Shown one piece after another: positions 18,204 to 30,006 of a DNA stretch of 64,000 bases. The first letter of the stretch is position 1. Every line of letters begins with the position of its first letter. Position numbers and translations under genes: made by a program. The DNA comes from Opitutales bacterium (GTDB taxonomy: Bacteria > Verrucomicrobiota > Verrucomicrobiia > Opitutales > UBA953): contig JBBAUX010000002.1 of assembly GCA_040398005.1 (NCBI GenBank), positions 64,001 to 128,000 of the forward strand. Reading direction: 5' to 3'. The notes beneath the pieces are model-generated. The model was not told where the DNA came from and ran no database searches. It worked only from the letters and a program-made list of their open reading frames with translations.

Positions 18204-19463
18204 ATGACACCTCCCTCCGCTAGCGCTGGTCGTATCACTATCACGAACGGCACACTGAATGTACCCGATCACCCCATCATTCCTTTTATCGAAGGTGACG
18301 GTACGGGCCCGGATATCTGGCGCGCTTCGGTTCGTGTCTTCGATGCTGCCGTAGCCAAAGCTTATCACGGAAAACGTAAAATTGAATGGCTCGAAGTTTT
18401 AGCGGGCGAAAAATCTTTCAAGAAAACGAACGATTGGTTACCCGAAGCCACCCTCACGGCTTTTCGAGATTATCTCGTCGGAATCAAAGGACCGCTCACC
18501 ACTCCGACCGGTGGTGGCATTCGTTCGCTTAATGTCGCGCTCCGCCAACAATTGGATCTCTACGTTTGTCTCCGTCCGGTGCAATGGTTCATCGGCGTTC
18601 CTTCACCTGTAAAAAATCCCGGTAAAGTAAATATGGTAATTTTCCGCGAGAACACCGAAGATATTTACGCTGGAATTGATTTTGAAGCGGGCTCGGAAGT
18701 CGCGCTCAAAACTTTGGAGTTTATCAAGACGAACTTCCCCAAAGAGTTTAAGAAAATCCGCTTTGGTGCAGAGCAACCCGCGACCGTCGGCCTCGGAATT
18801 AAGCCCGTTTCTAAGCCTGGTTCTGAACGTTTAATCCGTTCGGCGATTCAATATGCCATCGAGAATAAGCGTAAATCTCTGACCTTAGTTCATAAAGGAA
18901 ATATCATGAAATACACCGAAGGGGCTTTCATGAAATGGGGATACGATTTGGCGAAAAATGAATTTGGTGCCGTAGAAATCGAGGGCGGCCCTTGGTGCAA
19001 AATTCCTGAAGGCAAGCCCGGTGCTGGCCTCGTGATTAAAGACGCGATTGCGGACATCACCCTACAACAAATTCTGACACGTCCGACCGACTTCGACGTC
19101 ATCGCGACGCTGAATCTTAATGGCGATTATCTTTCCGACGCCCTTGCTGCGCAAGTGGGCGGTATCGGTATCGCTCCCGGTGGAAATATTAATTATCTAA
19201 CCGGACATGCGATCTTTGAGGCGACCCACGGTACTGCGCCGAAGTATGCTGATAAGGACGTCGTCAATCCTGGCTCCGTCGTTCTCAGTGGCGAAATGAT
19301 GTTCCGCTACCTGGGTTGGACCGAAGCGGCTGATCTCATTCTAAAAGGTTTGAATGGTGCGATTGGTGGTGGTCGCGTGACTTATGATTTCGCCCGACAA
19401 ATGGAAGGTGCGAAGGAAATTAAGTGCTCGGAGTTCGGGGATGCGATTATCGAAAAAATGTAG
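18204..19463 (+). CDS. icd: Isocitrate dehydrogenase (NADP+, E. coli-type)
   Basis: [61 protein letters not shown]. Confidence 0.96.
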
Positions 19464-19492
19464 TTCATCCTTTATTTTATTAGCTAAATTCG

Positions 19493-19531
19493 AACAGGGC
19501 AGGCCTTCTTGAGGCTTGCCCTGTTATTTTT
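19493..19531 (+). terminator. Intrinsic terminator after icd
   Basis: AACAGGGCAGGCCT-TCTTG-AGGCTTGCCCTGTT followed by ATTTTT. Confidence 0.8.
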
Positions 19532-19551
19532 AATAAGACAAATTTCTCTTC

Positions 19552-20319
19552 ATGAAAAACTCGCTGCGTGCACTGGCTTTAACCGTATTTACAATGGGCG
19601 TCGCCCAAGCTCAAAACACCCCGAGCAGTCCCTTAGGTTCCGACCTTTCGGTTCGTGCTAATTTTTCGTGGGCTTCAAAAAATGTTGCCCGTGGTAAAGA
19701 GCGCTCCAGCGAGGAAGGTTTATTTCAATGTCAATTAACGGTCGAGTACGCCGTCCCCACCATCATCGGCACCTCTGTTTATTTCAGTGGCTATAGTGCA
19801 GATAGTTTTGAAAAAGTTTACGGCGCCGGTGTTCGTCGCAGCATGGAATGCGGCACGCTTGATATTGGCTACCAGCATACCAAGGCTAATAATCACTTCG
19901 TGAATACGAATGGTGTTGCGGGTTATACTTTGGCACCGTCCGACAATGAATATTACATCGGACTCGTTTTATCGAAGGATGTTTTTCTCCGTCCTTCGGC
20001 TTACCTGTTTTATAGCGATGAGTTAAGACAGTATAACTTCGTCGTTTCGGCCCGTAAGGATTTCGACGGAAGTGATATTGGCTTATCCGCGATCAATATT
20101 GTAACCAAGCTCTATGCCGGTTCGATCTACGCATCGGACTCGAATTGGGATACGGCCAACTCTTACCTGTATGCTGGTGCCTCGATGGATTTCATTTATG
20201 CTATCAGTCCTAGCGCTAGCGTGGGCACCGGGCTTAATTTCGCGTATAATAATGATAATGCGGCAGACACTAAGGGTGGAGTCTTCTGGTACCGTTTTTT
20301 TGCTAATTTCCGCTTTTAA
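19552..20319 (+). CDS. Outer-membrane beta-barrel protein, possibly TorF-like porin
   Basis: Signal peptide, ASKNVARG segment resembling the S.Y..RG start of TorF-like barrels, aromatic-rich strands, C-terminal FRF. Confidence 0.6.
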   Translation: MKNSLRALALTVFTMGVAQAQNTPSSPLGSDLSVRANFSWASKNVARGKERSSEEGLFQCQLTVEYAVPTIIGTSVYFSGYSADSFEKVYGAGVRRSMECGTLDIGYQHTKANNHFVNTNGVAGYTLAPSDNEYYIGLVLSKDVFLRPSAYLFYSDELRQYNFVVSARKDFDGSDIGLSAINIVTKLYAGSIYASDSNWDTANSYLYAGASMDFIYAISPSASVGTGLNFAYNNDNAADTKGGVFWYRFFANFRF

Positions 20320-20453
20320 GGGGCAAAGTAGGGTTTTTGGCTAAATCGCCTAAACATCCTCTCTCTAATTAAAAGCACTCTCACCGTATGATTTGCCCAT
20401 TCGGGTGTTGACGGAGGGGTCTCAAGCCTCATTTTCCGACTTTCCCTCTTTTT

Positions 20454-20897
20454 ATGAAGACCACGCTAGCTAAGAATGTGCAGCTCAAAGACAAAACTTG
20501 GTACATTATTGATGCCAAGGACCAAGTCCTCGGACGCCTCGCAGTCAAAATTTCCAACGTCCTCCGCGGACGTCATAAACCCACCTACACTCCACACGTG
20601 GACACAGGTGATTACGTCATCGTGATCAACGCAGACAAAGTGCGCTTAACCGGCACCAAAGAAACCGACAAAACTTACATGTTCTACACCGGTTGGGTAG
20701 GTACTGCTTACCGCCGCACAGTTTCTGCTATGCGCGAACGTCGTCCTGAATTTATCGTTAAGCACGCGGTCAAAGGCATGCTTCCTAAAAATCGTTTAGC
20801 GAATGACATGCTCCTTAAGCTTCGCGTTTACGCTGGTGAAAAGCACGATCAAGCTGCTTCCAACCCAGTTCCATTCCCATCCTTTCCTAAGGTCTAA
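20454..20897 (+). CDS. rplM: 50S ribosomal protein L13
   Basis: WYIIDA, LGRLA, HKPTYTPHVDTGD, AVKGMLPKN. Confidence 0.98.
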   Translation: MKTTLAKNVQLKDKTWYIIDAKDQVLGRLAVKISNVLRGRHKPTYTPHVDTGDYVIVINADKVRLTGTKETDKTYMFYTGWVGTAYRRTVSAMRERRPEFIVKHAVKGMLPKNRLANDMLLKLRVYAGEKHDQAASNPVPFPSFPKV

Positions 20898-20913
20898 TTT
20901 TTAATATTACTCA

Positions 20914-21315
20914 ATGAGCGCCACTAAGTCATCCGCCATCACTGCCGTCGGCCGTCGTAAGACTGCTTCGGCTCGTATCCGCCTTTCTCGCGGAACTGGA
21001 GTTATTTCCGTCAACGGAAAACCTGTAGAAGAATATCTTTACACTGAAGCCCTCGTTAAAGCGGCCACTGCTCCATTGCGAACAGCGGGTCTCGAAGGCC
21101 AAGTAGACGTTTCGGTTAATGTTATCGGCGGTGGTCCTAACGGCCAAGCTGGTGCCATTTCCCACGGATTAGCTCGCGCCCTCCAAAAGATGGATGCGAC
21201 TCTTCGTGCTCCACTCAAGAAAGAAGGCCTCCTTACCCGCGATGGTCGTATGCGCGAACGTAAGAAGCCCGGTCAGCCAGGCGCCCGCAAGCGCTTCCAG
21301 TTCTCGAAGCGCTAA
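20914..21315 (+). CDS. rpsI: 30S ribosomal protein S9
   Basis: GRRKT, GGG..GQAGA, ERKKPG, RFQFSKR. Confidence 0.98.
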   Translation: MSATKSSAITAVGRRKTASARIRLSRGTGVISVNGKPVEEYLYTEALVKAATAPLRTAGLEGQVDVSVNVIGGGPNGQAGAISHGLARALQKMDATLRAPLKKEGLLTRDGRMRERKKPGQPGARKRFQFSKR

Positions 21316-21335
21316 ACCGCCTCGGAAAAGGAAGA

Positions 21336-21365
21336 AAAAAGGCCCCGGCACCCCGGGGCCTTTTT
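21336..21365 (+). terminator. Intrinsic terminator after rpsI
   Basis: GGCCCCGG-CACC-CCGGGGCC followed by TTTTT. Confidence 0.88.
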
Positions 21366-21426
21366 GTTGGCGAGTTTTGCTATGTCCAAACGACCATTCC
21401 TCCCTTAACTTTTTATCAATCACACC

Positions 21427-22476
21427 ATGTCTCAATCACTGATCCAAGTCGGCATCGTTGGCGCCTCTGGCTACACAGGCGAAGAGCTCGTTGGTATCCT
21501 CGCCCAACACCCCCACGTCGAACTCGCGATGGTTTGCTCGCGGTCCCTCGCCGGAAAAAAAGTGGTGGATGAGCTGCCTAGACTCCGGGGCAAGGTGAAT
21601 GCAAATTTAGTTTTTTCTGCATCCTCACCTCAAGAGTGTGCCGCTTCCGCGGTCGGCGTTTGGTTTTTGGCTCTGCCTCATGGGGTCGCTACCGAATACG
21701 CCCAGCCTCTCGTGGCTGCAGGGAAAAAGGTTTTGGATCTCTCGGCCGATTTTCGGCTGAAGGATTTACAGATTTATAAAAAATATTACGGCCACGATCA
21801 TCCCGCGCCCCAACTCACTTCGCAGGCGCGGTATGTGATTCCCGAATTACAACTGGATGATGCTTGGAAGAAGATTTCCCTCGTGGCTTGCCCCGGTTGC
21901 TACCCAACCAGCATTCAAATCCCTATCATCCCTTTATTACGGGCTGGCTTAATTAAGCCCGAGCCCGGTCGGTGCATTATTAATTCTTACAGCGGCGTAT
22001 CGGGAGCAGGTAAGAAAGCCGATGTAAATTACCTTTTCTGTGAGCGGGATGGGTCGATGAAAGCCTATGGTATTCCGAATCACAGACATATCGCGGAAAT
22101 CGAAGAACAACTGAGCGGAGCTGCCGGTAAAGCTATCGTCGTCCAATTTAATCCACACCTCGCTCCGATGCATCGAGGTATTTCGACCACGATTGTGGTT
22201 CCGGCCAATGGAGCCACGGCCGCCCAAGTTGAAAACTGCTGGCAAAAAGCTTTTGCCGATAAGCCTTTCGTTTCGATTTTAAAATCAGGCGATTTTCCCG
22301 ATACCGCCCACGTGGCGTACTCAAATCAAATCGAGATTTCGGTGGTCGCCGATGAACGGACCGGAAATTTAATTATCACTTCAGTCATTGATAACTTATT
22401 GAAAGGCGCGGGCGGTCAGGCCGTGCAAATTCTTAATCTGATGATGGGCTGGAACGAAACCACCGGATTACGTTAA
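21427..22476 (+). CDS. argC: N-acetyl-gamma-glutamyl-phosphate reductase
   Basis: GASGYTG, ALPHG, DLSADFR, PGCYPT, SGVSGAG, DNLLKGAGGQAVQ. Confidence 0.96.
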   Translation: MSQSLIQVGIVGASGYTGEELVGILAQHPHVELAMVCSRSLAGKKVVDELPRLRGKVNANLVFSASSPQECAASAVGVWFLALPHGVATEYAQPLVAAGKKVLDLSADFRLKDLQIYKKYYGHDHPAPQLTSQARYVIPELQLDDAWKKISLVACPGCYPTSIQIPIIPLLRAGLIKPEPGRCIINSYSGVSGAGKKADVNYLFCERDGSMKAYGIPNHRHIAEIEEQLSGAAGKAIVVQFNPHLAPMHRGISTTIVVPANGATAAQVENCWQKAFADKPFVSILKSGDFPDTAHVAYSNQIEISVVADERTGNLIITSVIDNLLKGAGGQAVQILNLMMGWNETTGLR

Positions 22477-22490
22477 TTTACAACATCTCT

Positions 22491-23720
22491 ATGGATATTG
22501 ATTTTATTGATGACTCAGCAGGTCTGTCCGACGTCCCCGGTTTCCGGGTTGGGGCCGCCGGGTGCGATATTAGAAATAAGAACTTGGATCGACTCGACCT
22601 CACTTTAATCGTCGCTGACCAACCCTGCAGTGCCGCGGGTGTATTTACGACGAACGACGTCAAAGCCGCACCCGTTCGGTATTCACAAAATATTTTATTA
22701 CTTTCCAAAGGAAAAATCAGGGGTGTCGTCGCCAACAGTGGCAACGCAAATGCTTGCACTTCCCAACAAGGGGATGTTGACGCTCAACTGATGGCGGAAC
22801 TTTCGGCCAAAGCCGTGGGTACGCCCACCGAAGCTTTTCTGGTTTGTTCAACCGGAAGAATTGGCGAGTTACTGCCCATGGCGAAGGTCGCTCTAGGTAT
22901 AAACACCGCTAGCCAAAATTTGTCGAATAAAGCGACCGAAGGTCGGAGAGCCGCTGAATCTATTTTAACCTCCGATACTAGACCTAAAACAGCGACCGCT
23001 TCGTTTGTCTGGCAGGGCAAAAAGGTAACAGTCGCAGGCTTTGCTAAAGGTGCTGGTATGATTGAGCCGAACATGGCGACGATGTTGGCGTTTGTGGCTA
23101 CCGATGCCGATGTGAACGCCGTCACTCTCAAAAAATCTTTATTATCCGCGACTCAACAATCGTTCAATTGCGTGAGCGTCGATGGTGATATGTCGACCAA
23201 CGACACAGTCATCTTGATGGCCTCAGGCGTTTCTAAAGTAGTCGTTGATGAAAAGGCTGATCCAGATTTGCGAAAACTTTTCCAAGCCACTTTAGATAAA
23301 ATCTGTTTTGCGTTGGCGGAAAAAATTGTCGGTGATGGTGAAAAAATCACGAAAGTTGTCTCGGTCGAAGTTCACGGTGCGCGGACGCGTGCAGACGCCG
23401 AAAAAATTGCTCGGGCCATTGGCAATTCGTTACTCGTCAAATCCTCTTGGTTTGGTGAAGACCCTAACTGGGGACGTTTAGCGGATGCGGCTGGCTACGC
23501 CCGGACGGGTTTAGATGAAGCTAAATTAGACATCCACTATAACGACGTGTCCGCCGTGGTGGGTGGACGTCCGATTCCTGAAAATAAGCCTCAGTGGAAG
23601 GAAGTGGTTAAAGCTCGGCAGTTTAAGGTTAGAATCAACCTGAACCTTGGTTCGGCCCATTTCCGTTTACTCGCGTCGGATCTCACCGATGGATACGTGA
23701 ACTACAACAAGAGCGAGTAA
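22491..23720 (+). CDS. argJ: Ornithine acetyltransferase / N-acetylglutamate synthase
   Basis: NSGNANACT, STGRIG, KGAGMIEPNMATML, DGDMSTND, DPNWGR. Confidence 0.96.
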   Translation: MDIDFIDDSAGLSDVPGFRVGAAGCDIRNKNLDRLDLTLIVADQPCSAAGVFTTNDVKAAPVRYSQNILLLSKGKIRGVVANSGNANACTSQQGDVDAQLMAELSAKAVGTPTEAFLVCSTGRIGELLPMAKVALGINTASQNLSNKATEGRRAAESILTSDTRPKTATASFVWQGKKVTVAGFAKGAGMIEPNMATMLAFVATDADVNAVTLKKSLLSATQQSFNCVSVDGDMSTNDTVILMASGVSKVVVDEKADPDLRKLFQATLDKICFALAEKIVGDGEKITKVVSVEVHGARTRADAEKIARAIGNSLLVKSSWFGEDPNWGRLADAAGYARTGLDEAKLDIHYNDVSAVVGGRPIPENKPQWKEVVKARQFKVRINLNLGSAHFRLLASDLTDGYVNYNKSE

Positions 23721-23773
23721 GATTATTTTCCAATTGCCCGTTGGCTTTCCACCCTCACTTTTAAATCTGTCTG

Positions 23774-24655
23774 ATGAGTACGCCTGCTGTCCATAAAGCT
23801 GAAGTTCTTCTTGAAGCACTTCCTTATATCCAAAAATTCCGTGGCTCCACCTTCGTGGTCAAATACGGCGGAAGTTTTATGGATGATCCTAGTCCTGAAG
23901 GCAGAGACCGGGTCGCTACCGATATTGCATTTTTAGCCGCCGTCGGCATTCAAGTCGTCGTCGTTCACGGCGGAGGCAAAGCGATTACTCGGGCCATGGA
24001 AACTGCTGGAATTAAATCTGAGTTCCGTGGCGGGATGCGGGTGACTGATGCGGCCACTGTAAAAATTGTCGAAGATACTTTGAACAAAGAAATCAACGGA
24101 CAGATCTGCGATTCACTTCGGGCGCGGGGTGCTAATCCACTCGGCATGCCAGGCAATCACGTTAACTTGTGCGAAAAACTTTTAGGTACTGATGAAGCTG
24201 GTAATCCCATCGATATCGGCTTCGTGGGTGATATTAAATTTGTGAAAGCAAAATTAATAAAAAAAGCTTTAGCGGATGGGTTTCTCCCGGTCGTTTCACC
24301 GATGGCGTTGGATGGAGATGACCACCCCTATAACACCAACGCGGATGTTGCCGCTGCTGCCATTGCCAATTCTCTGCGGGCCAGAAGGCTCATTTTTATG
24401 AGCGATGTGCCAGGTTTGTTGGCTGATCCGAAAGATCCATCGACTTTAATTACTACCTTAAAGGTGGGCGAAGTGGATGAGCTTAAAAAGAAGGGCGTGA
24501 TCGCTGGAGGAATGATTCCTAAAGTGGATAGCGCGGTTAAGGCACTCAAAGAAGGAGTACGGAGAGTGCACTTTATTGATGGTCGGGTTCCTCATTCACT
24601 GCTCTTAGAAGTCTTTACCGATAAGGGTATCGGCACGGAGATTGTCCACGGATAA
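23774..24655 (+). CDS. argB: Acetylglutamate kinase
   Basis: [38 protein letters not shown]. Confidence 0.96.
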
Positions 24656-25884
24656 TGTTACACGACTCTGTCCATTCTTCCGACGAGTCTGCCAAACTCT
24701 ATATCCAATTTTTGGCTAAAAATTATTCGACTCAAGCCATTACCTTGGTGAAGGGTAAGGGTACGCGGGTGTGGGATGCCCACGGAAAAGCCTATTTAGA
24801 TTTTGCCTCAGGAATTGCCGTCAACTCAGTCGGTCATGCTCATCCTGTGATGGTTAAAAGAATCAGTGAGCAGGCTGAAAAATTAATTCACGTCAGCAAT
24901 CTCTACCGGAATGAGCCTCAAGCTAAGTTGGTTGAATCGCTTTCAAAATATTGTGGCTCCGGAAGATTTTTATTTTGTAACAGCGGTGCTGAAGCTAATG
25001 AAGCGCTTTTAAAACTCGCCCGGCTTCACGGTAAGAAAAAATCAGGCGTTGAAGGAAAATGTATCGGAGTCGTGGTTGCCGAAAAAGCCTTTCACGGGCG
25101 GACCTTTGGGGGTATGTCTGCCACTCCTCAGGAGAAAATCCAATCAGGCTTTAGACCCTTATTGACAGGCTTTTCCTCGGCTCCGCTGAATGACATCGCT
25201 GCTTGGGATAAAGCCATCAGTGCCACCGACACCGCTGCGGTTTTATTAGAAACCATTCAAGGGGAGGGTGGTATCTTTCCAGCTGATCCCGTTTTCTTAC
25301 AACAACTGCAAAAAATCTGTCAGGAAAGAAATGTCTTATTACTCATTGATGAAATTCAGTGCGGTATTGGTCGAACGGGTAAATTCTTTGCCTATGAATT
25401 CTCGGGAATTAAACCTGACGCGATTGCGATGGCGAAAGGCCTCGGTGGCGGATTTCCCATTGGTGCTATCTGGATGGCTCCACCGTATGATGAACTTTTT
25501 CAGCCTGGTTCGCACGGTACCACGTTTGGTGGTGGTGCTTTAGCAGCGGCCGCCGCCCTCTCCGTTATCGAAATTATTGAAAGTGAAAATCTCGTTGCTC
25601 GGGTGGCTGCCCAATCTCCGGCCTGGCATGAATCTCTGAAAAAATTAGCGCAAAAGTATCCTACGATTATCAAAGAAATTCGGGGTGTCGGATACATGGT
25701 CGGTGTCGGGATGAATATTGATCCGCTTCCCGTCGTTGCTGCTCTGCGTGAAGCAGGATTGTTGACCGTACCGGCGAGTGGAATTGCGATACGGTTGTTG
25801 CCGCCATTAAATGCGACAGTCGCCGAGTTAAATGAGGCTGTCGAAATTTTTGACCGGGTGTTAAGTGCGTGGAAAGTCGCTTAA
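24655..25884 (+). CDS. argD: Acetylornithine aminotransferase
   Basis: NSGAEANE, FHGRT, IQGEGG, DEIQCG.GRTG, AKGLGGGFPIG, HGTTFGG; within the arg operon. Confidence 0.93.
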   Translation: MLHDSVHSSDESAKLYIQFLAKNYSTQAITLVKGKGTRVWDAHGKAYLDFASGIAVNSVGHAHPVMVKRISEQAEKLIHVSNLYRNEPQAKLVESLSKYCGSGRFLFCNSGAEANEALLKLARLHGKKKSGVEGKCIGVVVAEKAFHGRTFGGMSATPQEKIQSGFRPLLTGFSSAPLNDIAAWDKAISATDTAAVLLETIQGEGGIFPADPVFLQQLQKICQERNVLLLIDEIQCGIGRTGKFFAYEFSGIKPDAIAMAKGLGGGFPIGAIWMAPPYDELFQPGSHGTTFGGGALAAAAALSVIEIIESENLVARVAAQSPAWHESLKKLAQKYPTIIKEIRGVGYMVGVGMNIDPLPVVAALREAGLLTVPASGIAIRLLPPLNATVAELNEAVEIFDRVLSAWKVA

Positions 25885-25952
25885 ACCGCTATTCCAGCAC
25901 ATTTTCGCCTGTCCAAAATCGTTTCGCTAGATAGTTTTAAACACCTTCTCTC

Positions 25953-26897
25953 ATGCGTCACTTCCTCAAAGAGACCGATTTAAGTTTGGCTGAAATCCAA
26001 TCGATTTTTGCCCAGGCTGCTTTGTTGAAATCGCAAAGGGGTCAGGCTAAATCTCAGGATCTCGCCCAGCAGTCCTGGGGCCTACTTTTTTTCAAGAAGA
26101 GTACCCGGACCCGAGTTTCTTTTCAGGTCGGCGTCCATGAACTTGGCGGACAGCCCGTCATGCTGAATGCGGATGACATGCAAATCTCGCGTGGCGAAAC
26201 GGTAGCGGATACCGCAAAAGTTTTATCACGTTATTTGCATGGCATGGTTATCCGGTGCCATGAACACAAACTCTTAGAAGATTTTGCTCAATCGGGCACG
26301 ATACCAGTCGTGAATGCATTATCTGACTTCCTGCACCCCTGTCAGTTTATGACTGATATGTTCACGCTCGCGGAACGTTGGTCGAAAGGAAAACCAGAAA
26401 ATTTTGCGAGTTCCTTAAAAGGACGGAAGGTTGCTTTCTTGGGTGACACTGCCTGTAACATGGCGAACTCATTTATTCTCGGCGGAGCTGCTCTCGGTGT
26501 GGAAATTGCTTTAGCGGGTCCAGCTGGCTACGAGCCCACCGCAGAAATTAAACAACAGCTTAAAAAAGATGGACTCAAGGAAACATTTACTTTTACGACC
26601 GACGCCGCTGCTGCGGTTAAGGGTGCAGACATGGTTTATACCGATGTTTGGGTGAGCATGGGCATGGAGGCTGAAAAGGCCGAAAGACTTAAAACCATGC
26701 AACCTTATCAAGTGAATTCGAAGCTGATGGCTCTGGCTAAACCCGATGCGTATTTCATGCACTGCTTGCCTGCTCACCCAGGCGAAGAAGTAACCGCCGA
26801 AGTTTTAGCGAGTCCGCAAAGCATTATTTTTGATCAAGCGGAAAACAGACTCCACGTGCAAAAAGCCATTCTCGCCCATTTAACCCGACACCGCTAA
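25953..26897 (+). CDS. argF: Ornithine carbamoyltransferase
   Basis: STRTR, HPCQ, YTDVWVSMG, HCLP, QAENRLH. Confidence 0.96.
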   Translation: MRHFLKETDLSLAEIQSIFAQAALLKSQRGQAKSQDLAQQSWGLLFFKKSTRTRVSFQVGVHELGGQPVMLNADDMQISRGETVADTAKVLSRYLHGMVIRCHEHKLLEDFAQSGTIPVVNALSDFLHPCQFMTDMFTLAERWSKGKPENFASSLKGRKVAFLGDTACNMANSFILGGAALGVEIALAGPAGYEPTAEIKQQLKKDGLKETFTFTTDAAAAVKGADMVYTDVWVSMGMEAEKAERLKTMQPYQVNSKLMALAKPDAYFMHCLPAHPGEEVTAEVLASPQSIIFDQAENRLHVQKAILAHLTRHR

Positions 26898-26915
26898 TTT
26901 ATTATTTAATATACC

Positions 26916-28172
26916 ATGAGTAAGAAAAAGAAAATCGTCCTCGCCTATTCGGGCGGACTCGACACCTCCGTCCTCCTATCTTGGATTAAGGATAAGCATC
27001 ATGCCGAGATGATCGCATTTTGCGCCGACATCGGCCAAGAAGATGAGTTGAAGGGCTTGAAGCAAAAAGCGCTCAAGACCGGTGCGTCTAAACTTTATAT
27101 TGATGACCTCCAAGAGGAATTCGCCCGCGACTTTATTTTCCCGATGATGCAAGCGGGTGCGATTTACGAAGGTCAATACTACCTCGGTACATCGATTGCC
27201 CGTCCACTCATCGCCAAGCGCATGGTTGAGATTGCTCGCAAAGAAGGTGCGACCGCCATTGCTCACGGTGCGACGGGTAAGGGTAATGACCAAGTGCGTT
27301 TTGAATTAACCTGTGCGGCCTTAGCACCTGATTTAGAAATCATCGCGCCATGGCGTAATGAGGAATTCCGTGCCGATTTCCCCGGTCGTGCTGAAATGAT
27401 CGCCTATTGCGCGAAGAATAAAATCCCGGTCGAAGCGAGTGCGAAAAAGCCCTATTCTTCGGATCGAAACCTTCTTCACATTTCTTATGAAGCTGGCATT
27501 CTAGAGGATCCTTGGATGGATGCTTTTGCACCTGCGAACAAGGCCATGTTCAAACTTTCCGTTTCACCGGAAGACGCTCCGAATAAACCTGAGTATGTTG
27601 AACTCGAATTCCGCCAAGGTGATTGTATCGCGGTAAACGGTAAGAAGATGAATCCGCTCGGAGTGATGCGCACGCTGAATAAAATCGGTGGCCGTCATGG
27701 CGTCGGTCGAGTCGACATGGTAGAAAATCGTTTCGTCGGCATGAAGAGTCGCGGCGTTTATGAAACACCAGGCGGTACGATTTTACATTTCGCTCACCGT
27801 CAGATTGAATCCTTAACCATGGATCGCGAAGTGATGCACTTACGCGACTCTTTAGTTCCTCGTTACGCGACCTTAGTTTACAATGGTTTCTGGTATGCTC
27901 CCGAGCGCCTAGCCCTACAGGCACTCATCACTGAATCTCAACGCAACGTGACTGGCACGGTTCGTGTGAAACTCTATAAAGGTGGTACTTATGTCGCAGG
28001 TCGAAAGAGTCCTCGCTCGTTGTACAATCCACATATTGCGACGATGGAAGCGGATCCAACCAAAGCTTACAATCAAGACGACGCTACGGGATTCATTCGC
28101 CTCAATGGTTTACGTTTACGCGTGAACTCAAAGGTCAATGGCGTGCAGAACTTAAGTAAGACCGTTCGATAA
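26916..28172 (+). CDS. argG: Argininosuccinate synthase
   Basis: [38 protein letters not shown]. Confidence 0.97.
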
Positions 28173-28190
28173 CACTAAGACACACCGATT

Positions 28191-28219
28191 AAAAAAGGCG
28201 TCCAGTGGACGCCTTTTTT
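28191..28219. terminator. Bidirectional terminator between argG and tRNA-Cys
   Basis: AAAAAAGGCGTCCA-G-TGGACGCCTTTTTT between convergent genes. Confidence 0.85.
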
Positions 28220-28231
28220 GTTACTTTAAAT

Positions 28232-28306
28232 TGGAGGCGCGGGTCGGAATTGAACCGACGCATGGGGCTTTTGCAGAGCCCGGCCTTACCACTTGGCTAC
28301 CGCGCC
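28232..28306 (-). tRNA. tRNA-Cys (GCA)
   Basis: Reverse complement GGCGCGGTAGCCAAGTGGTAAGGCCGGGCTCTGCAAAAGCCCCATGCGTCGGTTCAATTCCGACCCGCGCCTCCA; U73 discriminator. Confidence 0.96.
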
Positions 28307-28402
28307 TAACACCTACAGGGCGTACTCTGCCACTTGTTAACTTTCTTTCAAGGGTTTTATGCAATGGCTTTCCTTTCTCAAATTATCCATTAAAACAGGG
28401 TA

Positions 28403-28894
28403 ATGTCAGCCCAACCTCCCTATCGTATTGGACTCGGTTACGACATTCATCCGCTCGTCTCTGGCCGTCCCTGTATTCTGGGAGGGGTCACGATTCCCTC
28501 AACGATGGGCCCTGATGGGCATTCCGACGCCGATGTTTTATTGCACGCCGTAGCCGACGCACTTTTGGGCGCGGCCGGACTTCGCGATATCGGATATTAT
28601 TTTCCGAATACGGATCCAAATATCAAAAATATCAAATCCGACCTGATTGTTAAAAAGGCTCTCGAGGAGATAAAAAAGTTGGGATGGATCGTGGGGAATA
28701 TCGACGTGGTCGTCATCGCCGAACAGCCAAAAATTTCTGAACACATCACCCAAATCAAAAAATCTATTTCAGGACTTTTAGAAGTGGGCGAAGATCAAGT
28801 CGGGGTAAAGGCGACGACGAATGAAGGGATGGACTCGATTGGCCAGGGTAGGGCTATTGCGGTTCAGGCTATTTGCATGCTTTTGAAAGCCTAA
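28403..28894 (+). CDS. ispF: 2-C-methyl-D-erythritol 2,4-cyclodiphosphate synthase
   Basis: RIGLGYDIH, GHSDADV..HA, DIG..FP, VKATTNE. Confidence 0.96.
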   Translation: MSAQPPYRIGLGYDIHPLVSGRPCILGGVTIPSTMGPDGHSDADVLLHAVADALLGAAGLRDIGYYFPNTDPNIKNIKSDLIVKKALEEIKKLGWIVGNIDVVVIAEQPKISEHITQIKKSISGLLEVGEDQVGVKATTNEGMDSIGQGRAIAVQAICMLLKA

Positions 28895-28958
28895 ATAGAG
28901 GGTTTAGTCCTTTCCGTCTTGTCAAATCGGTCTAAACAAACTCTCTCCAATTAAATCT

Positions 28959-29372
28959 ATGGAGCAGACCCTTATTATTTTAAAACCCGATTGTATGGAG
29001 CACCGCCATTATGGCACTGTTCTCGCGCGCTTTGAAGCTGCTGGTTTTGACATTCAAGCCTGCAAATTAACCCGCCTCACGCCTGGTCAATTACGCGAAC
29101 ACTATGCGCACGTTGCGGATAAACCTTTTTATCCTGACATCGAAACTTTCATGTCCTCACGTCCCGTGATTATCGCTGTCTTAAGCGGTCAAAACGTCAT
29201 CGCTCGCGTGCGTGAATTGCTCGGACCCACGAATTCAAAAGTCGCTCCTAAAGGCACCATTCGCGGTGATTTTGGAACGGAGATGATGCGCAATGTTTGT
29301 CACGCCTCGGACAGCCCAGAGGCTGCCGCTGCTGAAATCAAACGTTTTTTTAGCGCGACCGAAATTTTCTAA
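28959..29372 (+). CDS. ndk: Nucleoside diphosphate kinase
   Basis: TLIILKPD, GTIRGDF, N.CHASDS. Confidence 0.96.
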   Translation: MEQTLIILKPDCMEHRHYGTVLARFEAAGFDIQACKLTRLTPGQLREHYAHVADKPFYPDIETFMSSRPVIIAVLSGQNVIARVRELLGPTNSKVAPKGTIRGDFGTEMMRNVCHASDSPEAAAAEIKRFFSATEIF

Positions 29373-29409
29373 GTCTGCTACTTTCTATTTTTTTAGGGGT
29401 TTTAAAAGA

Positions 29410-30006
29410 GTGCACCGCTCATTTTTAAACTTCCTCAGCTTAGTAATATTTTCTTCGGTTGCCATCGCGGAGACTCCGAAGGCAAAATCTGATTTTGTTC
29501 TAAAGAGTTCGGTGATGATGGAGGGTGGAAGTATGCCCAAGGAATTTACGGGAGATGGTGCGGGTATTAGTCCGCCGCTGGAGTGGAAGGGCGCACCCGC
29601 AGGTACAAAATCTTTTGTCGTGATCATGCATCATTTCCCGCATGAAGGCGACCCGGCCCGCTGGTATTGGATTTTATATAATATTCCAAATACCATAACT
29701 TCCCTCGTAAAAGCGACCAAGGGTGTCGGCGTGAATGGCTCTAATTGCGTAGGTCCCGATTTAGCTTACGCACCGCCGCACTCTAAGGGACCAGGCATTA
29801 AAAAATACACGATCAGCATTTATGCTTTGTCTGCTCAGCCGAAATTAACGGTAACCGGTAAACAGTTGAATCGTGAGGCGATGCTGGCTGCTATTAAAGA
29901 TATTACACTGGGTCAGGCAGAGCTTAATTTTACGTATGATCGGACTGACGTGGTCTCGGCCGAAAAGGGTAGTGATGCGAGTTCGTCCAAAGGAAGTCGT
30001 CGTTAA
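29410..30006 (+). CDS. YbhB/YbcL family PEBP protein, probably exported
   Basis: DG.GISPPLEW..AP.GTKSF, WILYNIP, YAPP, YALS; signal-like N-terminus from GTG 29410. Confidence 0.8.
   Translation: MHRSFLNFLSLVIFSSVAIAETPKAKSDFVLKSSVMMEGGSMPKEFTGDGAGISPPLEWKGAPAGTKSFVVIMHHFPHEGDPARWYWILYNIPNTITSLVKATKGVGVNGSNCVGPDLAYAPPHSKGPGIKKYTISIYALSAQPKLTVTGKQLNREAMLAAIKDITLGQAELNFTYDRTDVVSAEKGSDASSSKGSRR

Follow-up and report, generated by a model that had tools for sequence, protein, structure and literature searches.

Near-exclusive use of CGG, AGA and AGG codons in five arginine biosynthesis genes of an Opitutales bacterium

Why should genes that make arginine be written in the arginine codons that the rest of the genome seldom uses, while the last gene of the same operon contains none of them? 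The question is raised by the argCJBDFG operon of an Opitutales bacterium, located in a window (the whole stretch of DNA analysed) of 64,000 nucleotides next to rplM and rpsI, two highly expressed genes that adjoin it and serve here as an internal contrast (Table 1). A hairpin terminator closes the rplM-rpsI unit and is followed, after about 60 nt, by the start of argC. At the other end of the operon, argG starts 18 nt past argF, within the same transcription unit, and encodes the most conserved protein in the neighbourhood. All seven arg genes, including the separately located argH, score above the curated NCBIfam cut-offs and represent arginine biosynthesis by the acetyl cycle; the operon and argH are not linked, and the two contigs concerned measure 179 kb and 143 kb. 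The host is a small freshwater bacterium, and its close relatives are lake MAGs. Throughout, CGG, AGA and AGG are termed rare Arg codons, and the rare share of a gene is their fraction among all of its Arg codons.

Table 1. Features of the arginine operon, its flanks and the unlinked argH gene, with Arg codon usage
Feature	Position	Strand	Identification	Arg codons	Rare share
rplM	20454-20897	+	NCBIfam TIGR01066, above cut-off	CGT4 CGC7	0/11
rpsI	20914-21315	+	NCBIfam NF001099, above cut-off		0/15
hairpin terminator, two-way, 13-pair stem, T runs on both sides	21336..21365	.	terminator scan, sequence read		
argC, N-acetyl-gamma-glutamyl-phosphate reductase	21427..22476	+	TIGR01850, 385.8 bits	CGT1 CGA1 CGG8 AGA2	10/12
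argJ, bifunctional ornithine acetyltransferase/N-acetylglutamate synthase	22491..23720	+	NF003802, 417.6 bits	CGT4 CGA2 CGG7 AGA5 AGG1	13/19
argB, acetylglutamate kinase	23774..24655	+	TIGR00761, 220 bits	CGT2 CGG8 AGA3 AGG1	12/14
argD, acetylornithine transaminase	24655..25884	+	TIGR00707, 449.5 bits	CGT1 CGA1 CGG8 AGA4	12/14
argF, ornithine carbamoyltransferase	25953..26897	+	NF001986, 395.1 bits		6/13
argG, argininosuccinate synthase	26916..28172	+	NF001770, 594.9 bits	CGT11 CGC13 CGA4	0/28
hairpin terminator, 14 pairs and T run, ends the argCJBDFG unit	28190..28220	+	terminator scan		
argH	G000:C4:2015-3421, other contig		TIGR00838		25/26

The per-gene rare counts given for the six operon genes in a preliminary description of the locus were reproduced exactly, as was the restriction of rplM to CGT and CGC. 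As a background we used our own ORF-based set of 1197 genes, 1043 of which have at least eight Arg codons; the rare share is 0.167 genome-wide, 0.16 in the median gene and 0.56 at the 99th percentile. Ranked by this measure, the top five of the 1043 genes are argH, which is the highest of all, argD, argB, argC and argJ, and every gene outside these five has a rare share of at most 0.63. The pooled count for the five is 72/85 (binomial p = 9e-43 against the genome value), and the probability that the top five of 1043 would all fall within the seven arg genes by chance is 2e-12. The non-arg genes of the window use rare codons at 152 of 1040 Arg positions. Thus argC, argJ, argB, argD and argH are recoded to near-exclusive CGG/AGA/AGG, and argF is partly recoded, its intermediate share recurring across the seven closest MAGs (5/14 to 9/15).

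The limits of the recoding differ from those that had been proposed. The preliminary description saw a switch of codon class at argG, but the lack of rare codons there is ordinary for the codon adaptation of this gene (rare codons are equally missing from 41 of the 462 genes that have 20 or more Arg codons), and the anomaly lies in argC/J/B/D/H. A division between early and late steps of the pathway fails too, as argH, which encodes the enzyme of the final step, is recoded most strongly. The genes carA (3/19) and carB (4/59), which had been named as further genes to check, are ordinary, and the same is true of argS; together with argG and argF, the car genes show that any protection does not extend to all enzymes that serve the product. 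The lower Arg content noted for the upstream enzymes was borne out, with 3.4-4.8% in argC/J/B/D/F, 5.6% in ArgH and 6.7% in ArgG around a genome mean of 5.53%; argC and argD are the poorest, at 3.4% (12th percentile). A shift of cognate codons comparable to that of Arg was not seen in the Leu and Thr pathway genes of this genome. When the outlier scan was extended to other amino-acid classes, argH remained the strongest case (p = 9e-19), the sole comparable one being ATA in an AT-rich, foreign-looking gene.

The deviation concerns a single codon family and a single reading frame. In Arg-specific codon deviation the arg genes rank 1, 4, 7, 12 and 16 of 1197, and when deviations are added up over the remaining 17 codon families, all arg genes fall between the 3rd and 56th percentile, as native genes do. 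Their CAI without Arg codons, computed against 26 verified ribosomal-protein and elongation factor (EF) genes, lies at the 58th to 84th percentile, which is fairly well adapted; at such values a rare share of 0.08-0.16 is expected, and even the lowest expression quintile reaches 0.60 at most. Low expression and horizontal transfer, either of which the preliminary description regarded as fatal to its reading, are both excluded by this combination of native and fairly well-adapted codon families. Counted per kb in frames 0, +1 and +2, CGT/CGC/CGA occur 2.24, 13.28 and 32.76 times in the five genes vs 15.29, 12.70 and 30.05 in the genome, and CGG/AGA/AGG 12.42, 14.83 and 20.52 times vs 3.07, 16.75 and 20.65. 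Since the shift is confined to frame 0, it acts at decoding and not via a motif, a nuclease site or mutation context. Arg positions are affected throughout each protein, irrespective of place; three pairs of adjacent Arg codons occur in the recoded genes, all mixed (CGG-AGA, AGA-AGG, CGG-AGA), and same-codon tandems (CGG-CGG, AGA-AGA) are missing from them.

The tRNA-Arg gene set, which had been singled out as a point to check, comprises one gene each with the anticodons ACG, CCG, TCT and CCT. The ACG anticodon is presumably modified to ICG, and this tRNA serves 83% of the Arg codons of the genome and 97% of those in ribosomal proteins and elongation factors. CGG, AGA and AGG are read by the three minor, single-copy tRNAs (anticodons CCG, UCU and CCU), whose codons account for 17% and 2.5%, respectively. 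The resulting ratios of codon demand are 11.1:1 for ICG:CCG and 11.9:1 for ICG:AGA.

Eight close lake MAGs, from different isolates, carry the same pattern. In seven MAGs with 96-98% ArgC identity the rare share of argCJBD is 0.78-0.86 vs 0.00-0.16 in the flanking genes; argG has 0/28 in each of the seven closest MAGs, and argH of genome G008 has 26/28. The pattern is weaker, yet still significant, in genomes with other GC contents and of other families (G001, 61/104 vs 52/255; G014, 39/75 vs 47/249; G035, 46/91 vs 18/119; G037, 76/109 vs 59/157; G033, 47/114 vs 19/118), and there is little or no pattern in G005 (13/111 vs 39/296), G013 (13/119 vs 15/162) and L120 (4/74 vs 15/162). High-GC relatives choose CGG and the low-GC G036 AGA/AGG as well; the common feature is the class of codons not read by ICG, rather than one codon. 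Neither low GC nor small size is by itself enough to give the pattern, which is missing from argJ (2/22) and argD (0/22) of L141, an independent low-GC3 lineage. GC3 ranges from 0.43 to 0.96 across the genus, and both the GC3 and the four-fold divergence of the arg genes follow each host genome.

Conservation, another point that the preliminary description had proposed to check, extends to the synonymous sites themselves. Within the eight-genome clade, the CGG sites of argCJBD (19/27 invariant, pi 0.127) were compared with four-fold sites of the same genes (138/598 invariant, pi 0.384; p = 5e-7), with G-ending four-fold sites (17/123 invariant; p = 1e-8) and with CGG sites in 11 neighbouring genes (3/12 invariant, pi 0.50). 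The argCJBD CGG sites evolve about three times more slowly than the four-fold sites of the same genes, and their synonymous identity is under purifying selection in this clade.

Other means of arginine control were sought. As the preliminary description had suggested, argR was not found, here genome-wide (the genome is 93.9% complete): TIGR01529 gave no match at E <= 1 and the best PF02863 match, at E = 0.3, is below the cut-off. With up to three mismatches to the E. coli consensus, from which other phyla may differ, ARG boxes number 13 in the window vs 13.4 expected, and none falls in 21300-21430, ahead of argC. An Rfam scan of 19000-30000 returned only tRNA above the gathering score and no leader family; no leader ORF or attenuator was found before argC, where the short distance from the terminator leaves no room for a leader peptide. 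The lack of ArgR is not, as had been supposed, a special feature of a streamlined genome, given that PF02863 is present in only 1 of the 41 Opitutales genomes searched and its presence does not follow the codon pattern; many relatives also devoid of ArgR have little or no pattern.

We consider it probable that the five genes exemplify, in an extreme form, the known idea of starvation-robust codon choice by selective tRNA charging. According to PMC1183508, theory expects an isoacceptor to keep its charge when its codons are used little in relation to its concentration, and this was confirmed in E. coli for Thr, Leu and Arg. With arginine limiting, the heavily used ICG tRNA would be the first to lose its charge and ribosomes on bulk mRNAs would stall at CGU/CGC/CGA; the lightly used minor tRNAs would remain charged, arg mRNAs would be read at full speed, and arginine enzymes would make up more of the newly made protein with no regulator needed. 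The low Arg content of argC and argD points the same way, toward less dependence on Arg-tRNA, and the searches for ArgR, ARG box, leader and Rfam element, none of which was found, also support this explanation. Its direction, already proposed in the preliminary description, agrees with papers on E. coli and human cells: AGA/AGG/CGG are described as the starvation-insensitive Arg codons (preprint 10.64898/2026.02.22.707322), human cells limited for Arg show ribosome stalling at CGC/CGU only and loss of most of the charge of tRNA-Arg(ACG) (10.1101/321448), and translation of rare-codon mRNAs goes on in starved cells (PMC5066624). Counting against it, argG belongs to the same unit, serves the same product and has 28 ICG-type codons, an arrangement not expected of a scheme that makes the whole pathway robust; carAB and argS lack the recoding, the Leu and Thr pathways have no comparable shift, and there are relatives that lack both ArgR and the pattern. 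Furthermore, argE, argC, argB and argH of E. coli K-12 show no enrichment (9/61), which makes the generalisation in print a weak one even for its model organism. With tRNA(ICG) at an abundance more than about 11-fold that of the minor tRNAs, the theory would point in the opposite direction.

An effect in that opposite direction, which we regard as rather unlikely, would arise if the minor Arg tRNAs were the scarcest and the first to be uncharged, such that translation of arg mRNAs would depend on sufficient arginine or charged tRNA, in a rare-codon sensor with positive feedback, or their output would always be throttled. In an E. coli whole-cell model (PMC10325894), CGG, the codon of the scarcest Arg tRNA, is indeed the most sensitive, with a tandem CGG in argA as the most sensitive site and positive feedback there, and each minor Arg tRNA is a single gene here. 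However, tRNA(ACG) is also a single gene, with 11 times the codon demand, and the same-codon tandems of the model are missing. A self-reinforcing loss of the pathway would be harmful where no ArgR is found, whereas purifying selection in fact maintains the codons, and near-total replacement in combination with Arg-poor argC and argD fits the removal of hungry codons better than the placement of a few sensors. PMC5066624, 10.1101/321448 and 10.64898/2026.02.22.707322 moreover have CGG/AGA/AGG as insensitive.

Tuning of expression apart from arginine supply appears unlikely: elongation might be slowed for folding, a low constant level maintained, or a "private" tRNA channel used that avoids competition with ribosomal proteins. 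Rare codons slow elongation in many systems, which favours such tuning, and the otherwise moderately good adaptation of the arg genes would leave only their Arg codons as brakes. Still, a general brake need not pick only the codons of the pathway product, no such outliers exist in other amino-acid classes, every Arg position is affected wherever it lies in the protein, and the pattern is common to five functionally different enzymes at two loci. Recent horizontal transfer, MAG chimerism, local mutation bias or chance were tested and rejected as highly improbable. Exchange among members of a genus so variable in GC3 could give foreign-looking codon use, but the other codon families are native, the effect is frame-specific and far beyond chance, both unlinked loci and eight MAGs of different isolates reproduce it, the low-GC3 L141 lacks it in argJ and argD, and the arg genes follow each host genome in GC3 and four-fold divergence.

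Starvation-robust codon choice, as favoured here, can be set beside several known systems. Depletion of the cognate amino acid from biosynthetic enzymes (Fasani and Savageau 2014, PMC4209129) resembles the Arg-poor argC and argD; that bias is one of amino-acid content and not of synonymous codons, and argH and argG are not depleted. In mammalian cells, according to Darnell et al. 2018 (preprint 10.1101/321448, human cells) and Saikia et al. 2016 (PMC5066624), the ACG/ICG-decoded CGC/CGU codons stall, as is proposed here, and rare-codon mRNAs are still translated, although these systems have other tRNA pools and signalling and no link to arginine-biosynthesis genes. The E. coli argA prediction (Choi and Covert 2023, PMC10325894) also has rare Arg codons in an arginine gene tie synthesis to charged tRNA-Arg, but it is a simulation of a sensitive CGG-CGG tandem in one gene, unlike the whole-gene replacement in five genes, with no same-codon tandem, described here. 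In Bacillus subtilis sinR, starvation-sensitive serine codons lower a repressor, as tested by recoding (Subramaniam et al. 2013 eLife, PMC3862929); synonymous codons there turn amino-acid supply into protein level with no dedicated RNA or protein sensor, as they would here, whereas the presumed insensitive codons of the arg genes would shield biosynthetic enzymes. ArgR/ARG-box regulation and leader attenuation have the same purpose of matching arginine enzymes to supply, by means (ArgR, upstream ARG box, leader ORF, attenuator) that were not found here. The selective-charging theory for the codon bias of biosynthetic genes is reportedly due to Elf (Science, 2003), and Dittmar et al. (2005) are also said to be associated with it; PMC1183508 sets it out again. 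The arg genes share with it the movement of codons for a pathway's own amino acid to isoacceptors for which demand is low compared with supply; compared with the published case, a theory with a statistical trend in E. coli, the bias here is near-complete (72/85), restricted to five enzymes with ArgG of the operon exempt, found with no ArgR, conserved, and subject to measurable purifying selection on synonymous sites.

Five genes of arginine synthesis, argC, argJ, argB, argD and argH, carry the highest shares of the codons CGG, AGA and AGG (the minor class) in the genome under study, G000, an assembly of 1.44 Mb in 14 contigs that is 93.9% complete. The background consisted of long open reading frames that passed a codon-model filter, 1197 genes spanning about 93% of the genome, with 8242 CGT, 8619 CGC, 2993 CGA, 1790 CGG, 1669 AGA and 533 AGG codons, of which the minor class makes up 16.7%. 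The ranking was restricted to the 1043 genes that have eight or more arginine codons, and their minor share has a median of 0.16 and a 99th percentile of 0.56; argH stands first, followed by argD, argB, argC and argJ, and the next gene reaches 0.63. Pooled, the five genes hold 72 minor codons out of 85 (binomial p = 9e-43), and the probability that the top five would all fall among seven arg genes by chance is 2e-12. Our recount reproduced exactly the per-gene counts of the preliminary description for argC, argJ, argB, argD, argF and argG. Since argH is unlinked to the operon and encodes the last step of the pathway, the finding reaches beyond the region originally described, and the contrast drawn there between early and late enzymes is wrong. 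Of the genes named there as possible outliers, argCJBD and argH proved to be so, whereas carA (3/19) and carB (4/59) are ordinary, perhaps owing to their added role in pyrimidine synthesis; argS (7/45) also lies outside the recoded set and argF is halfway.

Coordinates and arginine codon counts of the features discussed (window numbering unless a contig of G000 is given)
Feature	Position (strand)	Minor/all Arg codons	Remark
argCJBDFG operon	21427..28172 (+)
argC		10/12
argJ		13/19
argB		12/14
argD		12/14
argF		6/13
argG	26916-28172	0/28
argH	G000:C4:2015-3421	25/26	separate contig
rplM		0/11
rpsI		0/15
rpsI terminator	21336-21365		perfect 13-pair hairpin between A and T runs
Terminator after argG	28190-28220		hairpin
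RNA-library contig (run X4)	20474-22163		spans rpsI terminator
Arg-Arg pair, argJ codons 152-153	22944-22949
Arg-Arg pair, argB codons 204-205	24383-24388
Arg-Arg pair, argB codons 263-264	24560-24565
LeuA-like gene	G000:C5:115522-117183 (-)
Two adjoining genes	G000:C6:60618-66814 (+)		964 and 1101 aa
TCG-rich gene	G000:C1:4312-5748 (+)		478 aa

All six operon genes (6/6) exceed the curated NCBIfam cut-offs and form a single unit between the two terminators, with argG starting 18 nt downstream of argF; the neighbours are icd, rplM, rpsI, ispF, ndk and serS. The rpsI hairpin could terminate both ways, and the RNA-library contig that crosses it could be explained by read-through or by library DNA. 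Arginine makes up 3.4% of ArgC and ArgD (12th percentile), 4.1-4.8% of ArgF, ArgJ and ArgB, 5.6% of ArgH and 6.7% of ArgG; the genome averages 5.53%. The 13 codons of the other class (CGT, CGC and CGA) left in argH and in argC, argJ, argB and argD (21427-25884) are nine CGT and four CGA; CGC is the commonest arginine codon genome-wide (36%), yet does not occur in them, and the recoded genes of the seven closest metagenome-assembled genomes (MAGs) are likewise nearly without it (0-2 CGC). The three Arg-Arg pairs in the recoded genes are all mixed (CGG-AGA, AGA-AGG and CGG-AGA), the same codon never being doubled, in a sample too small to test. A tendency of CGG and AGR to alternate along argH lacks significance (17 runs by hand count; expectation about 13.5).

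A sequence motif, nuclease site or RNA-binding site is ruled out by a frame control: in frames 0, +1 and +2, CGT/CGC/CGA occur at 2.24, 13.28 and 32.76 per kb in the five genes against 15.29, 12.70 and 30.05 in the genome, and CGG/AGA/AGG at 12.42, 14.83 and 20.52 against 3.07, 16.75 and 20.65, so that the signal is confined to codons. Neither motifs and cleavage sites nor mutation dependent on context can account for it. Horizontal transfer or chimerism, which would make all codon families atypical, is ruled out by divergence and GC3, by the relatives and by the native use of the 17 other codon families, whose summed deviation places each arg gene at the 3rd-56th percentile of all genes. Their arginine-family deviations rank 1 (argH), 4, 7, 12 and 16 of 1197, and the genes interleaved with them are long, highly expressed and biased the opposite way. 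Drift in weakly expressed genes, the other possibility raised beforehand, is excluded by two measures of adaptation. The first principal component of non-arginine codon use sets apart aconitase (verified) together with genes that we take, from their N-termini, to be rpoB/rpoC, groEL and S1; over its quintiles the minor share drops from 0.26 to 0.07, with a maximum of 0.60 in the lowest, and the arg genes lie at its 24th-71st percentile. On a codon adaptation index (CAI) referred to 26 verified ribosomal-protein and elongation-factor genes they lie at the 58th-84th percentile, where a minor share of 0.08-0.16 is expected. The arg genes are fairly well adapted, and 'bad' at arginine only.

The recoding is kept in the closest clade and is weaker or absent farther out. 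Reading frames in relatives were homology-guided (defined by tblastn), and the nearest genomes are lake-water MAGs of Opitutales/Opitutae (Verrucomicrobiota), with UBA953 at 78% ArgC identity; part of the homologous loci (L-numbers) are the same contigs as the relatives' genomes (G001-G040), so that the two sets overlap and are not independent, as kin likewise are not; L096 and L031, for instance, equal contig G008:C42 in length. In the seven loci of the closest clade (96-98% ArgC identity), argCJBD have minor shares of 0.78-0.86 and the genes flanking them 0.00-0.16, argF ranges from 5/14 to 9/15 and argG is 0/28 in every locus; argH of G008 has 26/28. Locus L139 (83% identity) is intermediate (argC 14/15, argJ 7/20, argB 6/16, argD 6/15), members of moderate GC3 (0.65-0.75) show 0.38-0.59 against 0.06-0.20, nearly all CGG, and in high-GC3 members mostly just argC is raised (about 30-50% CGG against about 10%), with no pattern in the high-GC3 G005, G013 and L120. 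Low GC or genome reduction is ruled out as a sufficient cause by L141, an independent lineage of GC3 0.45 with argC at 10/16 but argJ (2/22) and argD (0/22) unshifted, so that composition alone does not produce the pattern. Differences from the flanks at p < 0.01 occur in 7 of the 18 genomes with at least 100 background arginine codons (G001, G006, G008, G014, G033, G035 and G037). The pattern appears in four genomes from other Opitutales families, G033, G035, G036 (21/28 against 34/81, p = 4e-3, on a background of 81 codons only) and G037, and is missing in seven (G025, G026, G028, G029, G030, G039 and G040). The share in argG is low nearly everywhere, the exception being G037 (10/23).

One genus-level group (L092-L171, 75-80% ArgC identity) spans GC3 values of 0.43-0.96, with at least two low-GC3 lineages, the G000 clade and L141/L142/L144. 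ArgC sequences 76-79% identical stand in records titled Akkermansia muciniphila, Polynucleobacter meluiroseus and uncultured Klebsiella sp.; the titles of L101, L107, L118, L146 and L152 are likely taxonomic mislabels.

The synonymous identity of the recoded codons is maintained by selection, for which an eight-genome clade provides direct evidence at columns with a conserved amino acid. In argCJBD, 19 of 27 CGG sites are invariant (mean pairwise difference 0.127), compared with 138 of 598 four-fold sites (0.384; Fisher p = 5e-7) and 17 of 123 G-ending four-fold sites (0.454; p = 1e-8); among CGG sites of 11 neighbouring genes the count is 3 of 12 (0.50; Mann-Whitney p = 5e-4). Substitutions mostly exchange one minor codon for another: the mean pairwise difference in class is 0.056, against 0.213 for minor arginine codons of the neighbouring genes. 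We judge the pattern to be real and highly significant, tied to the reading frame, and both conserved and selected.

At this resolution it is also specific to arginine, with few pathways annotated and weaker effects possible: a scan of 30 codon classes yielded no other outlier gene in the pathway of its own amino acid. The top outliers are the candidate rpoB/rpoC, groEL and S1 genes, presumably highly expressed, or genes with a general G- or A-ending bias, and only one gene, AT-rich and of foreign appearance, deviates comparably to argH (p = 9e-19), in its ATA codons. No cognate shift is seen in the genes that blastp searches with E. coli K-12 proteins, the sole means of identification, gave as candidates for leuC, thrC, aspartate kinase and homoserine dehydrogenase. 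One gene is LeuA-like (26% blastp identity to the E. coli protein; CAI percentile 0.81) and uses TTA/TTG for 35 of 47 leucine codons against 0.44 genome-wide (p = 2e-5); it may be a weak leucine counterpart. Two adjoining genes on contig C6 whose A-ending codon use looks foreign (ATA 31/85, ACA 25/65) are probably acquired DNA, and a gene on contig C1 uses TCG for 19 of 32 serine codons against 0.20 genome-wide (p = 2e-6).

ARAGORN predicts 35 tRNA genes, of which four are for arginine (ACG, CCG, TCT and CCT, one copy each) and none is a UCG or GCG tRNA-Arg, so that CGT, CGC and CGA must be decoded by the ACG tRNA, presumably with its anticodon read as inosine (ICG). Codon demand per tRNA gene for this species relative to CCG is 11.1:1 and relative to AGA 11.9:1, and 97.5% of arginine codons in the ribosomal-protein and elongation-factor set belong to its class. 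In the 93.9% complete G000, profile searches for ArgR gave no match to TIGR01529 at E <= 1 and a best E of 0.3 for PF02863; the E. coli ARG box consensus, which may not be the host's, had chance-level matches and none before argC; and the region upstream of argC, at about 60 nt too short for a leader peptide, gave nothing over threshold in Rfam. These results agree with the earlier report of no argR in the window and no ARG box before argC. The link drawn there between the pattern and the absence of ArgR fails: the ArgR C-domain was found in only 1 of 41 Opitutales genomes searched, so that its absence is a lineage trait, not peculiar to G000, and its loss as a trigger cannot account for the differences between genomes.

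The proposal that codons of lightly used tRNAs would protect amino-acid biosynthetic enzymes in starvation is attributed to Elf in 2003, and to our knowledge natural support for such codon bias has so far been mostly statistical. The following sources describe the basis: under selective-charging theory, limitation leaves an isoacceptor charged if its codons are used little for its concentration and empties the heavily used ones, which has reportedly been verified in E. coli for Thr, Leu and Arg (PMC1183508); AGA, AGG and CGG are listed as starvation-insensitive arginine codons (10.64898/2026.02.22.707322, a 2026 preprint); in human cells limited for arginine, ribosomes stall at CGC and CGU only and the charge of tRNA-Arg(ACG) is down 70% (10.1101/321448); and translation of rare-codon mRNAs persists in starved cells (PMC5066624).

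By analogy with these systems we lean towards the view that the recoded codons would keep the arg enzymes being made under arginine limitation. The opposite reading takes CGG as the most sensitive codon, exerting positive feedback on arg enzyme synthesis, and an E. coli whole-cell model predicts such sensitivity of CGG, with positive feedback at argA (PMC10325894). Selection could hardly preserve a self-amplifying shutdown, and CGG-CGG tandems are missing from the five genes, all tandem pairs being mixed. Continued translation under limitation is favoured on these grounds and because a single ACG tRNA gene meets an 11-fold demand, because replacement is near total and not restricted to a few sensor codons, and because argC and argD are poor in arginine. 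The preliminary description, which saw codons tuned for translation under arginine starvation, was right in kind, though not in its early-versus-late framing or its appeal to ArgR loss.

The main point that such tuning leaves unexplained is the exemption of argG. In itself argG is not odd: in its CAI decile 27% of genes are without any minor codon and the pooled minor share is 0.076, and genome-wide 41 of the 462 genes with at least 20 arginine codons have none. Compared with argH, of practically equal CAI percentile (0.84 against 0.83), the difference has a Fisher p of 1.5e-14. No protein of the region is better conserved than ArgG: compared with five genus members (L035, L105, L115, L139 and L141) it shows 96-97% identity, whereas L13 and S9 reach 87-94% and ArgC/J/D 71-83%. 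The four-fold sites of argG are saturated, having diverged as far as those of other genes (0.58-0.67), and its GC3 varies with the host genome, which rules out that argG spread recently among members of the genus and places the unusually strong constraint at the protein level. Possibly slow or error-prone codons are most costly for ArgG, which is Arg-rich, constrained and probably abundant; possibly, too, its synthesis on minor tRNAs would load them and erode their advantage.

A wider reading, offered tentatively and in our view rather doubtful as a whole, would make the codon split the main arginine-responsive control, the ArgG exemption functional and the graded relatives a record of stepwise circuit evolution. 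ArgR-less freshwater Opitutales may have placed a regulator-free translational feedback in coding sequences; ArgG, by using the bulk tRNA, may spare a low-demand 'private channel' of minor tRNAs, or its synthesis may track bulk translation up and down; and argC may have been recoded first, then argJ, argB, argD and argH, with argF under way. Metatranscriptome contigs from four lake-water RNA libraries contain rplM-rpsI (4/4) and, in part, argC, argJ and argD, with a likeness of 93-97%; they attest presence only, possibly of DNA, and are therefore uninformative on levels or starts.

Here consecutive enzymes of similar codon adaptation differ in a near all-or-none manner, and since the pattern is frame-specific, selected and graded in relatives, the predictions of continued translation and of positive feedback are both directly testable. 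It suggests a way in which small genomes may keep enzyme synthesis in step with supply although they lack a classical repressor, and it warns annotators and gene designers that codons called 'rare' have a function in such genes. Codon choice can sense without a regulator in the serine sensor sinR of B. subtilis (PMC3862929). A literature search, with subscription journals mostly outside its reach, returned no report of such arg-gene recoding in any bacterium. In E. coli K-12, argE (1/18), argC (1/8), argB (2/9) and argH (5/26) are without the bias, whereas the arg genes of G000 are close to all-or-none; the principle is already known, and the G000 lineage is much the clearest natural example of it that we have found.
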